DNA of 64,000 nucleotides, taken from IMG/VR virus record IMGVR_UViG_3300014208_000028, positions 29,123 to 93,122 of that record; one strand, 5' to 3'. Source of the stretch: a virus. This document shows, one piece after another, positions 2,099 to 47,199 of the stretch. Numbering within the stretch: position 1 is the first letter of the stretch; each line of letters starts with the position of its first letter. A model generated the notes under the pieces. The model had not been told where the DNA came from, made no database searches, and worked only from the letters and a program-made list of their open reading frames with translations. The position numbers were made by a program, and so were the translations under genes.

Positions 2099-2191
2099 GA
2101 TCTCCTCCTAAGAGATTCGTTTCAGAAGGTGGGAATACTAGGTATTCTTCCTTCTATATATTTTATAACAAATTTTAGGAGGAATTTGCGA

Positions 2192-22346: not shown

Positions 22347-22419
22347 TAAAACTCCTTATATAAAAATAAAACAAGGAGCTATTCGCTCCTACTAGTTATA
22401 TTCTTTATACCATAAAATT

Positions 22420-24869: not shown

Positions 24870-25556
24870 TTATTTAGGAAGTAATCTTCTTTCAACTCTC
24901 AATGTTATTGCAGGGTTTACTATAACTTCGCCCGTAGGAGATATATTAGAAGTAACCCCTACTCCAAGACTTACTTCAGTTTTCTTACCCGTCTCAATGG
25001 CTATACGGGCTTCTGCGGGCAATCCTGCAACACCATAACCGGCCTCTACTTCAGCATTTAAACGAATAGGATGATAAGGAGTAGAATCAGCTAACTCCTT
25101 TTGAGTCTTAATTAATAAGTTTCTACAAGGAGCCGCAACAGCGTCATCATAAGCTGGAAGAATATTTACGCTTAAAGCATTACGAAGTAAGTCAGAGCTT
25201 TCAGCAGTCCAATATTTAGTAGAACTTTTATAAGGTATTGCTATAGTTTCTAAACAATCTTTACAATCAGAAGGAAAATTATCTGCTATAGTTTTTACGG
25301 GCACTTTTAATTTAATTATTTTAATAATAGTTTTAGGTTTAATTTTAGCCATTTCTTCTTTTAAAGCTTGGACCGCATCTTCTCTATCAAATTTCTCAGT
25401 CAATAATATAGATTCAGTTTTAGCTTTACCATCAGCATAAACTTTAATTTTATTATAAGTATATATTCCAGCTAGTAATACTAATAAACAAATAATTACT
25501 ATACCTATAATCTTAACTTTACTGCCCGCCAAAAATCCTTTTATCTTTTCAAACAT
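24870..25556 (-). CDS. membrane-anchored protein, spanin candidate
   Basis: N-terminal TM, helical region, C-terminal amphipathic beta strands. Confidence 0.5.
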   Translation of the reverse strand: MFEKIKGFLAGSKVKIIGIVIICLLVLLAGIYTYNKIKVYADGKAKTESILLTEKFDREDAVQALKEEMAKIKPKTIIKIIKLKVPVKTIADNFPSDCKDCLETIAIPYKSSTKYWTAESSDLLRNALSVNILPAYDDAVAAPCRNLLIKTQKELADSTPYHPIRLNAEVEAGYGVAGLPAEARIAIETGKKTEVSLGVGVTSNISPTGEVIVNPAITLRVERRLLPK

Positions 25557-25574
25557 TATTTACCCCTTATATCT

Positions 25575-25658
25575 AAAAATTAGGGAAGAGAAATGGTTTG
25601 AGCCACTTCCCTTCCCAACAGAAGGAGGAGAACCTGAGAAGCTGCAATCTCTTCTCAT
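25575..25658 (-). ncRNA. putative sRNA with exposed anti-SD (CUCCUCCUU)
   Basis: Directly after GTTATAAT promoter; 7-bp 5' hairpin, single-stranded linker, 14-bp terminator stem with G.U pairs on minus strand. Confidence 0.55.
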
Positions 25659-25663
25659 ACTTA

Positions 25664-25840
25664 TTATAACGTATTTTCCTCGCTTTTTTCAGGAGGCATG
25701 AAGTTAATGATGTTATCATTTTCTACTTTTTTAACCGCTCCATCCAAAAGAACATAACTGACTGTTTCTCCGATTCGTGCAATCGGTCCACGAACCAACT
25801 CTTTTCCTAGTCTTACTTTCACGACATCCCCGATTTCCAT
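25664..25840 (-). CDS. 58-aa KOW/SH3-like small protein
   Basis: MEIGDVVKVRLGKELVRGPIARIGETVSYVLLDG...; GGAGG RBS; own promoter at 25880; not in ORF track. Confidence 0.7.
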   Translation of the reverse strand: MEIGDVVKVRLGKELVRGPIARIGETVSYVLLDGAVKKVENDNIINFMPPEKSEENTL

Positions 25841-25908
25841 GTGTGACCTCCAGTAAAGTATGACATTAGTACAAATATTTTATAACATATTAATTAAAAA
25901 AATATCAG

Positions 25909-26157
25909 CTACTTTTCTACTATATCGATAGCTTTATACGAAATTTTAATAGACTTACCATGAGAAGCGGCCCAGAAAATAGTCTCCAAAGCTTTCTCAA
26001 TTTTACTATAAGTACCTCTAATATATTTAATATCATCATCTAAACATTTTATAGATACTATCATAGCATTATCTAACGTAGATGTACTGACCTGTACATC
26101 ATCAGGCGAATTAACCAAACCCTTTACAATTTCAGCCGCATAAACATTAATATCCAT
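25909..26157 (-). CDS. KhpA-like single KH-domain protein
   Basis: IVKGLVNSPDDVQVS...DDIKYIRG..SK..KALETI matches the KhpA pattern; GxxG loop degenerate. Confidence 0.7.
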   Translation of the reverse strand: MDINVYAAEIVKGLVNSPDDVQVSTSTLDNAMIVSIKCLDDDIKYIRGTYSKIEKALETIFWAASHGKSIKISYKAIDIVEK

Positions 26158-26216: not shown

Positions 26217-26876
26217 TCAAATACTTGCTTTTAATAATTCATCCTCATTATCTATATACTTATTCCACTGAAAGTATTTATCCATAAAATTCATCGACCG
26301 TTTAAATAATTCATTTCTAAAGTTAGCCATATACCACGGTCTTAACTTGCACAATCTCATAGTTTTATTAAGTACTAATACTTGTCCATTATCTCTAACG
26401 CCTATAACTCCAAATGGATGTTTGCGATTAGGATCTGCACTTATTTTTTCAGCTAATTCTATAGGAGCGGCGTACATAAAATAATTCGGCCGCCAAGAGA
26501 GATCAAAAAAATTAAGCAGCGCGTCATACTTATATACTGGAGCCACTTTAAAACTTTCATATAAAGACCTTAATTTTTCGGGGGCTACAATTTTTTTAAG
26601 TTTAGATATCTCTTTTTCTAAAATTAAATTATGAGCTTTATCCAGATCACTTAATACTTCTCTAAGCTGATAAGTATGTTTAAGTTTATCATTGTTATAA
26701 TCAGCCCAACTACGCTTAATCTCTACTTCTAAGATACCTTTATGACTGCCCCAAGCAATTAAATCGGCCTCCCATACACTATAAGAAATTCTAGGAACTA
26801 CCCACCAATACTGGTTCATCTTTAAATATCTATAAATTTTTACTTCTATATCTTTTACAGGTAATGTATTTTTCAT
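26217..26876 (-). CDS. PD-(D/E)xK nuclease-like (MmcB-like)
   Basis: EADLI...EVEIKRSWADY..D..KH, PNYFMYAAP, FGVI. Confidence 0.7.
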   Translation of the reverse strand: MKNTLPVKDIEVKIYRYLKMNQYWWVVPRISYSVWEADLIAWGSHKGILEVEIKRSWADYNNDKLKHTYQLREVLSDLDKAHNLILEKEISKLKKIVAPEKLRSLYESFKVAPVYKYDALLNFFDLSWRPNYFMYAAPIELAEKISADPNRKHPFGVIGVRDNGQVLVLNKTMRLCKLRPWYMANFRNELFKRSMNFMDKYFQWNKYIDNEDELLKASI

Positions 26877-26903
26877 ACGTTTATATTACCATAATTTATA
26901 AAT

Positions 26904-26970
26904 AAAAAAAGGGGCCGGACTAGGTTTCCCCAATCATGCCCTGACCCCTTCTAAGAGAATATTTTCTCTC
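26904..26970 (-). ncRNA. putative ~67-nt sRNA
   Basis: After TGTTATAAAA promoter: GAGAGAA/TTCTCTT hairpin, then AAGGGGTC/GGCCCCTT plus GATTGGG-GAAA-CCTAGTC stem and T-run; no ORF. Confidence 0.5.
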
Positions 26971-26991
26971 ATATATTTTATAACATATTTT

Positions 26992-46406: not shown

Positions 46407-47141
46407 TTATTTCTTGATGATTGAAACGAGAGAAGAGATGCTCGAAAGAATTCCTTCGAATCGTTTCATTTCTTCCTCCTTGAAACCTTCGATACCACTG
46501 ATGGTAATCACGATGGTCCTACCATCTTTCTCCTCCACAATCGGCGCTACAGGTTCAACAACAGGTTCAGCATACCGCTTTACGATAGCGGCCAAGGCGT
46601 TCCGTAATTTGGTATAGGTGCCTACTTGGAAAGTCTGTCCCTTTTTGACCCGCCCGAAGCAGCCGTAGAGGTAGGTTTCATTTACCTCTGCCTCTCTTGC
46701 CAAGAGAGTCATCAACCCCGCCTCTCCGTCTTTTCTGATTTTGGAATTAAGAGCATTACGAGCCTCTTTAATTTCTTCGACCAATGAAATCGCATTTTCC
46801 TTTTCAACACAATTACAGAAACTTCGATTCATCCTTCTTTTCCTCCATCCTTCTGTTTTCGACGCCAAAATTGCAGCATCGCATCGTCTCATGTTGAACG
46901 GAGCCGAAGAGAGTATTGAGATGATAGTCTCTTTATCTTTACCAGTAACATATTCCACCAGTTCAGAAAACTCCAAAACTTCATCCAATACTCCCTCAGC
47001 ACATTCCGGGCAAATCACCTTCCCGGAAATTTCAAACCACAATTCAGGCTCTAGGGCCTTATGAATTTGTCCGCAGCATCCGCAGTTCCAACTGCCGGTT
47101 ATCAGCCTAACTCTATCGCATCCCTCTAACTTCTTGTGCAT
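46407..47141 (-). CDS. Zn-finger protein, GC-elevated cassette gene
   Basis: CGCCG...CPECA; own promoter at 47169, AAGGAGG RBS. Confidence 0.7.
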   Translation of the reverse strand: MHKKLEGCDRVRLITGSWNCGCCGQIHKALEPELWFEISGKVICPECAEGVLDEVLEFSELVEYVTGKDKETIISILSSAPFNMRRCDAAILASKTEGWRKRRMNRSFCNCVEKENAISLVEEIKEARNALNSKIRKDGEAGLMTLLAREAEVNETYLYGCFGRVKKGQTFQVGTYTKLRNALAAIVKRYAEPVVEPVAPIVEEKDGRTIVITISGIEGFKEEEMKRFEGILSSISSLVSIIKK

Positions 47142-47199
47142 AAGATCCTCCTTATCCTTCTATAAATTTTATAACTAATTTTTAGAAGAATTTTCAGGA

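Follow-up and report, generated by a model that had tools for sequence, protein, structure and literature searches.

The 107-nt gap at positions 25557–25663, between two minus-strand genes of an uncultured phage, is entirely occupied by a promoter-hairpin-linker-terminator unit, which probably directs the synthesis of an RNA of ~80 bases that starts at a phage promoter of its own and stops at a strong terminator before a gene for a 228-aa membrane protein. In our judgment there is an even chance that this unit is a promoter-proximal terminated leader, or attenuator, of the 228-aa gene, whose linker acts in cis. The unit looks more like a gate on this one gene than like the general silencer of ribosome-binding sites that had been proposed for it in the initial annotation. 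Judging from the sequence, it is also the sole transcription route into the 228-aa gene, a point that the initial annotation had missed. Promoter likeness, the terminator, the lack of any other promoter before the gene and the alternative pairings of the linker were all established in silico. Positions given here are those of the window, i.e., the whole stretch of 64,000 nucleotides that was analyzed, which corresponds to bases 29123–93122 of a 199,871-bp IMG/VR phage record. The G+C content of this phage genome is ~31%, and its minus strand holds most of the genes. The features of the unit and of its two flanking genes, in the order of transcription, are as follows.

25664–25840, minus strand: 58-aa ORF upstream of the unit, with its own promoter at ~25887; its transcript would also end at the terminator of the unit.
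25692–25687, minus strand: −35-like box CTGAAA(AA), whose spacing to the −10 box equals that of TGAAAA in the other promoters of the phage.
25671–25662, minus strand: promoter core CGTTATAATA, within the final codons and the stop of the 58-aa ORF.
25668–25663, minus strand: −10 box TATAAT, overlapping the stop codon (TAA) of the 58-aa ORF.
25656–25636, minus strand: 5'-terminal hairpin (hairpin 1) found by folding, in which GAGAAG (25656–25651) pairs with CUUCUC (25641–25636) around a 9-nt loop.
25634–25617, minus strand: CU-rich linker GGUUCUCCUCCUUCUGUU of 18 nt, in which CCUCCUU is the core of the 16S tail.
25616–25583, minus strand: hairpin of the intrinsic terminator, with 14 bp, of which 7 are G-C pairs, and the loop CUCAAA.
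25582–25575, minus strand: U-tract UAAUUUUU, whose first U is followed by an interruption.
25568–25563, minus strand: AAGGGG, the Shine-Dalgarno sequence (SD) 6 nt upstream of the ATG of the 228-aa gene at 25556.
24870–25556, minus strand: 228-aa ORF downstream of the unit, with an N-terminal membrane anchor.

In the proposed mechanism, the phage-type promoter in the end of the 58-aa gene would start an RNA at about G25656, and a protective hairpin would form at the 5' end of this RNA. Most transcripts would stop ~80 nt further on, at an intrinsic terminator that is the strongest in the genome and that would also end the mRNA of the upstream 58-aa gene. The 228-aa membrane gene, a homolog of which is found in the neighborhood of lysis genes, would then be expressed only by the polymerases that continue past this terminator. 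The short RNA would thus be a terminated leader, and the terminator would serve as an attenuator or a dosage gate. In cis, the linker would be an alternative, antiterminator-like partner of the GA-rich 5' arm of the terminator, and in the read-through RNA it would close onto the SD of the 228-aa gene or onto its early codons, damping its translation.

The intergenic regions of this phage share a bipartite motif that consists of a −35-like cTGAAAA, a spacer of ~13 nt and TG(T/G)TATAAAATAT. A weight matrix was built from 33 intergenic sites of the phage, with the site studied here left out of the training. On this phage-specific matrix, the studied site scored 19.8 bits and ranked 35th of 399,614 positions, and only ~0.10 sites scoring as high are expected per random genome of the same dinucleotide content. 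The whole promoter family comprised 45 sites of at least 15 bits, as compared to 1.1 expected in such random genomes. The TGAAAAA box of the studied promoter lies at the exact spacing of the family, and the promoter is embedded in the final 30 nt of the 58-aa gene. Its predicted transcription start at the standard position, G25656, is the first base of hairpin 1. In addition, the matches found with the unit region in its own genome by low-stringency blastn were mostly other promoter regions. The description of the RNA as promoter-driven is thus borne out in silico by a match far beyond chance, and the presence of a phage-type promoter is well supported by its sequence; we infer that this promoter fires. 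The family promoters of at least 15 bits are nearly all found 5' of genes, tRNAs or non-coding units, such as those at 26985, 28831, 25887, and 47176 on the minus strand. A GC-rich word, C(C/G)GCC(A/G)AAA, often in the form GCCCGCCAAAAA, was also observed in 26 copies in this genome of 31% G+C (for instance at window coordinates 157030, 97837, 142892, and 125546). Several of these copies sit just 5' of promoters, and the word may be a site for a regulator.

The hairpin, the CU-rich linker and the terminator are all present on the minus strand as had been claimed, with 6–7 bp, 18 nt, and 14 bp, respectively. Hairpin 1 has 6 bp, and a seventh pair, U25657-A25635, forms only when U25657 is transcribed. 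In the other non-coding units with a phage promoter, a 5'-terminal stem is found in the same register. The two G.U pairs of the terminator, G25610.U25589 and G25606.U25593, are specific to the minus strand, as was also claimed, given that the plus strand would have A-C mismatches instead. Of 57 terminator-like hairpins in the genome, the hairpin of this terminator ranks first in stability, at −22.0 kcal/mol. Folding of the region gave −37.9 kcal/mol for the minus strand and −26.3 kcal/mol for the plus strand, with z scores of −3.5 and −1.9, respectively. Interruption of the U-tract was considered as a sign of leakiness, which was set aside as a weak argument, since several other terminators of the phage also have one or two non-U bases after the stem. 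In the terminated RNA of 82 nt, CUCCUCCUU of the linker had a predicted mean unpaired probability of 0.65. The linker is therefore predicted to be mostly single-stranded in the terminated form, and its CCUCCUU is identical to the core of the 16S tail. The statement that the unit contains no ORF is to be qualified, as an ATG frame of 32 codons (25658–25560) and a frame of 48 codons overlap the region, both without an SD. The Rfam search called for in the initial annotation matched no family to the unit: at the gathering thresholds of Rfam 15, tRNAs alone passed in the window and the rest of the genome, and at permissive E-values positions 25300–25950 gave only chance matches (E 3.6–7.7).

The same features could be read more simply, with the spacer serving the 58-aa gene alone, as its 3' UTR and terminator, the promoter-like site inactive, the CU run functionless and the 228-aa gene fed by leak-through from upstream promoters. 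Several results are consistent with this reading, which we nevertheless consider unlikely. A generic sigma-70 scan found promoter-like matches no more numerous than in shuffles, a result that is uninformative in AT-rich DNA. The studied core has CG where the training sites have TG, and its TATAAT arises from a Leu codon followed by a double stop (TTA-TAA-TAA). The CU-rich word CTCCTCCTT occurred twice in the window as compared to 0.8 times expected and was thus not rarer than chance. However, the rank of the site on the phage matrix, with 0.1 such sites expected, and the correctly spaced −35-like box argue against an inactive site. The T is also absent from other high-scoring sites upstream of real genes, such as AGTTATAAAA at 47176. 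Moreover, the hairpin starts exactly at the predicted transcription start, as it does in other units of the phage.

For the preferred reading of the unit as a terminated leader, the position of the terminator relative to the 228-aa gene is central. The U-tract and the ATG at 25556 are only 26 nt apart, a stretch that includes the SD AAGGGG, and neither the generic sigma-70 scan nor the phage-matrix scan found a second promoter between the terminator and this ATG. A terminator thus lies between promoter and ORF with no other promoter, as in an attenuator. Because the 228-aa gene has no promoter of its own, RNA polymerase would enter it solely by reading through the terminator. Given that the gene requires read-through, the unit would be a leader with an attenuator or a dosage gate, whatever the short RNA does, and termination would be partial or regulated. 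Pfam searches of the genome for a factor that could relieve termination found no Phage_antitermQ (PF06530, E ≤ 0.01), NusG or sigma70 region 2.

Protein searches identified three homologs of the 228-aa protein with identities of 53–56%, and on the strength of these homologs the 228-aa ORF is taken as a real gene. One homolog with 55% identity (L002:1281–2922) is directly after a gene for an endolysin (PG_binding_1) and a gene for an 83-aa, two-helix holin-like protein, an arrangement that points to a spanin-like, lysis-associated role of the protein family. For the endolysin of the phage itself, no relatives were found in the genome collection searched. A plus-strand 129-aa ORF is convergent with the 228-aa gene, so that the latter is the last gene of its transcription unit.

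The 58-aa ORF upstream of the unit has no homolog that could be found by protein search. Its predicted fold, from a single sequence with a pLDDT of 81, is a five-stranded, SH3-like small beta-barrel. The top Foldseek matches of this structure were Hfq, and an identification as Hfq was rejected, because their E-values were only ~8e-3 and an exhaustive structural search preferred other domains, with integrase C-terminal domains, Tudor domains and KOW domains ranking at Z ~7; the protein is best described as a generic small beta-barrel. The adjacent 82-aa ORF matched a KhpA/B KH domain with an E-value of 0.009, below the Pfam cut-off. The KH-like neighbor and the SH3-like 58-aa protein are no more than candidates for a sensor of the attenuator.

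The linker also has predicted partners in cis, which the initial annotation had not considered. In the nascent RNA (nucleotides 1–54), UUCUC-C-UCCU of the linker is predicted to form 9 bp with GGGA-A-GGGAA of the GA-rich 5' arm of the terminator. The gain from this pairing, −7.9 kcal/mol, ranked first among the 57 terminators, by a small margin over the next two, which gained −7.1 and −6.8 kcal/mol. This antiterminator-like helix (~−8 kcal/mol) is much weaker than the terminator (−22 kcal/mol). In read-through RNAs, the predicted unpaired probability of the linker was 0.15–0.26. The probability of pairing between CUCCUU of the linker and the SD was 0.78–0.92 in RNAs that end 3–15 nt past the ATG and 0.28–0.42 in longer RNAs; otherwise, the linker paired with a purine run in codons 8–10. 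Mutation of the linker in silico freed the SD to ~0.9. All of these pairings are thermodynamic predictions whose outcome varies with the length of the RNA folded, and robust sequestration of the SD in cis was for this reason rejected and kept only as a sub-step of the mechanism. If the predicted pairings are correct, they may matter functionally. They also offer a simple reason for the CU-rich, anti-SD-like composition of the linker, which adjoins a GA-rich arm and lies upstream of a purine-rich start region.

DNA relatives of the region were found neither in the phage collection, by near or distant searches, nor in IMG/VR. Searches of IMG/VR with both flanking proteins, the 219-aa protein encoded nearby and a 22-nt word of the element yielded no usable relative, and tblastn in phages found nothing. 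The same 228-aa protein occurs on four other contigs; the two that were compared (L006 and L007) were identical to the window, with 0 differences in 6.7 kb. As the other copies are identical, covariation analysis and a covariance model would be pointless. The three loci of the distant 228-aa homologs lack such a spacer and have either overlapping upstream genes or an unrelated spacer.

The initial annotation had interpreted the linker as acting in trans. In this interpretation, the product is a stable sRNA of 82 nt whose unpaired CUCCUCCUU blocks the SDs of phage or host mRNAs, an activity that may coexist with a role as a leader, as in StxS; we consider it doubtful. A promoter, a 5' hairpin and a terminator are together the signature of a stable sRNA (PMC2790875). 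The linker is largely unpaired in the terminated form and carries the core of the 16S tail. The order of the elements also bears on this point. In most other spacers of the phage, the terminator comes before the promoter; the reversed order found here, promoter and then terminator, speaks against the leader reading in that the short RNA itself could be the intended product.

A second promoter-driven RNA points in the same direction. This RNA of 77 nt, at genome positions 181950–182026 (L014:16150–16226, minus strand), is behind the second-best promoter of the genome, is closed by a long GA/CU stem and ends in a U6 tail. The apical loop presents CCUCC, part of a ACCUCCUUU that equals nine letters of the canonical 16S tail, with a predicted unpaired probability of 1.0. 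Moreover, CCTCCTT was found twice in the promoter-driven leaders (3.7 kb) as compared to 0.28 times expected (P = 0.03, uncorrected), which is a nominal enrichment only. The shorter CCTCC, however, was not enriched in these leaders, with three occurrences and two expected. The loop of the second RNA and the CCTCCTT count make a role in trans possible, and they do not establish one.

The complementarity of the linker to its supposed targets argues against such a role. For 318 phage ORFs, duplex energies between the linker and the start region of each ORF (−35 to +20) were calculated, with shuffled linkers as the control. The mean energy was −10.5 kcal/mol for the linker and −9.8 ± 0.6 kcal/mol for the shuffles, and the linker had 94 sites of −12 kcal/mol or lower, as compared to 79 ± 20 for the shuffles. 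The best target in the phage, the gene starting at 47141 with −23.5 kcal/mol, was matched or beaten by 17% of the shuffles. Since shuffled linkers do as well, the fit of the linker to ribosome-binding sites is an effect of its CU-rich composition, and the claim of a global silencer of SD-led mRNAs finds no support in the start regions of the 318 phage ORFs. A non-specific anti-SD RNA would also compete with ribosomes, which are far more abundant. The 9-nt match that had been pointed out before the ATG at 2098, AGGAGGAGA, does exist (2101–2109, minus strand). Matches of this kind are expected, because AGGAGG sites are many (56 on the minus strand). A small gene of higher G+C content at ~1880–2170 on the minus strand has the same AGGAGGAGA as its SD and a dedicated promoter of the family, with its core at 2170; the long plus-strand ORF to which it is antisense is probably spurious. 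An antisense match of 21/25 at window coordinate −24251 was rejected, because it is inside a coding region and has an E-value of 0.17.

A broader version of the proposal is that the phage makes a few RNAs that mimic the 16S tail, namely the one with the CUCCUCCUU linker and the one with ACCUCCUUU, which would mask the SDs of the host, the phage or both, while leaderless genes would escape and the RNAs would have a dual role similar to that of StxS. This is quite improbable in our estimate. If true, it would amount to a phage-driven translation switch and a new route to the takeover of translation, for which the present evidence is insufficient.

Finally, it is very improbable that the unit is a leader-peptide attenuator. 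In this reading, transcription would start at A25658 and yield a leaderless ORF of 32 codons (25658–25560) that spans hairpin, linker and terminator, and a ribosome translating this ORF would open the terminator stem and link its translation to that of the 228-aa gene. In favor of this reading, no stop interrupts the frame between the ATG at 25658 and the TAA at 25562–25560, 3 nt before the 228-aa ATG, and leaderless genes seem to occur in this phage. Against it, the ATG is only 4 nt after the −10 box, and an RNA started at the standard position, G25656, would lack the AUG. The ORF also has no SD and a composition unlike that of phage genes, and in the sister unit at 26970 the frame in this register is only 12 codons long. 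The apparent leaderless gene is the 219-aa gene (26876–26900, minus strand), which has its start 6 nt downstream of the −10 box TAATAT, lacks a Shine-Dalgarno sequence and, as judged from this arrangement, is a candidate for a leaderless mRNA.

Besides tRNAs, the genome contains at least nine promoter-to-terminator non-coding units, and no match to Rfam was found for the non-tRNA RNAs of the phage. One of them, the sister unit at 26904–26970 on the minus strand, is a promoter-driven RNA of 67 nt with a 5' hairpin (GAGAGAA/UUCUCUC), a bulged terminator of ~−22 kcal/mol and a U7 tail; a weak second promoter follows, and it is a stand-alone non-coding unit. Two longer non-coding promoter-to-terminator RNAs, both from the minus strand, are at genome positions 186169–186317 (L015:2369–2517; ~150 nt, containing CUCCUCC) and 154054–154313 (L013:6254–6513; ~260 nt). 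More such units are near window coordinates −15762, 123453, 123302, 154044, 129824, and 160752. The order of promoter, terminator and SD was found a second time at 22347–22419 on the minus strand, directly 5' of a gene for a 233-aa protein. The terminator there is a short hairpin (AGGAGC/GCUCCU) followed by a U-run, and the 3' arm of this hairpin could also pair with the SD of the 233-aa gene, AAGGAG. With at least nine units that belong to no known RNA family, the phage is a good subject for studies of phage RNA biology.

When compared with known systems, the unit shares features with several of them. C-rich sRNAs of Bacillota bind SD sequences, including RsaE, other Rsa RNAs and the hairpins of RNAIII (PMC2790875) as well as LhrC (PMC4132741). 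Similar to these sRNAs, the RNA studied here is predicted to combine a hairpin at its 5' end and a terminator at its 3' end with an unpaired, SD-complementary motif rich in C and U. This motif is predicted to be unpaired in the 82-nt RNA (0.65), with ~0.2 in the read-through RNA. Different from them, the unit has no match in Rfam, its complementarity to targets is not beyond that of its composition, and it is physically the leader of a gene. Pairing with the start regions of the 318 phage ORFs was not beyond chance, and membership in the C-rich anti-SD sRNAs fails on target specificity.

Type-I 3'UTR-derived sRNAs, such as those of the DapZ and MicL type, are transcribed from a promoter in the last part of the coding sequence upstream of them and share a terminator with the mRNA of that gene. 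The layout of the unit, with its promoter in the upstream ORF and its shared terminator, is the same; what differs is the read-through-dependent gene that is immediately after the terminator here. Classical attenuators form alternative terminator and antiterminator helices, and in other leaders, such as those of early T4 lysozyme transcripts, the SD is sequestered. The unit resembles both, because a terminator is between promoter and gene, an upstream strand is predicted to pair with the 5' arm of this terminator, and an anti-SD strand is predicted to pair with the SD. Unlike in classical attenuators, the antiterminator helix is weak relative to the terminator, and no sensor was identified.

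The closest parallel in layout is the late leader of lambdoid phages, PR'-tR', which gives rise to the 6S RNA of lambda and to StxS. The short terminated RNA of PR'-tR' is a by-product of the antitermination control 5' of the lysis genes, and in Stx phages it is now the trans-acting sRNA StxS (PMC7547250). Both systems consist of a phage promoter with an intrinsic terminator within ~80–200 nt, just upstream of lysis or late genes, and both would yield a short terminated RNA by default. This geometry was found here in the promoter and its close terminator, and a homolog of the 228-aa protein adjoins genes for an endolysin and a holin-like protein. Different from PR'-tR', the genome has no Pfam match to Phage_antitermQ, only one gene is found before the convergent gene, rather than a long late operon, the host is of a different type (AT-rich, with strong SDs), and the sequences are not similar. 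If the unit is indeed a terminated leader, an unrelated, AT-rich phage with no recognizable antiterminator would share a logic known from lambdoid late genes, in that this uncultured phage of 200 kb would gate a membrane gene of the lysis neighborhood via a promoter-proximal terminator.
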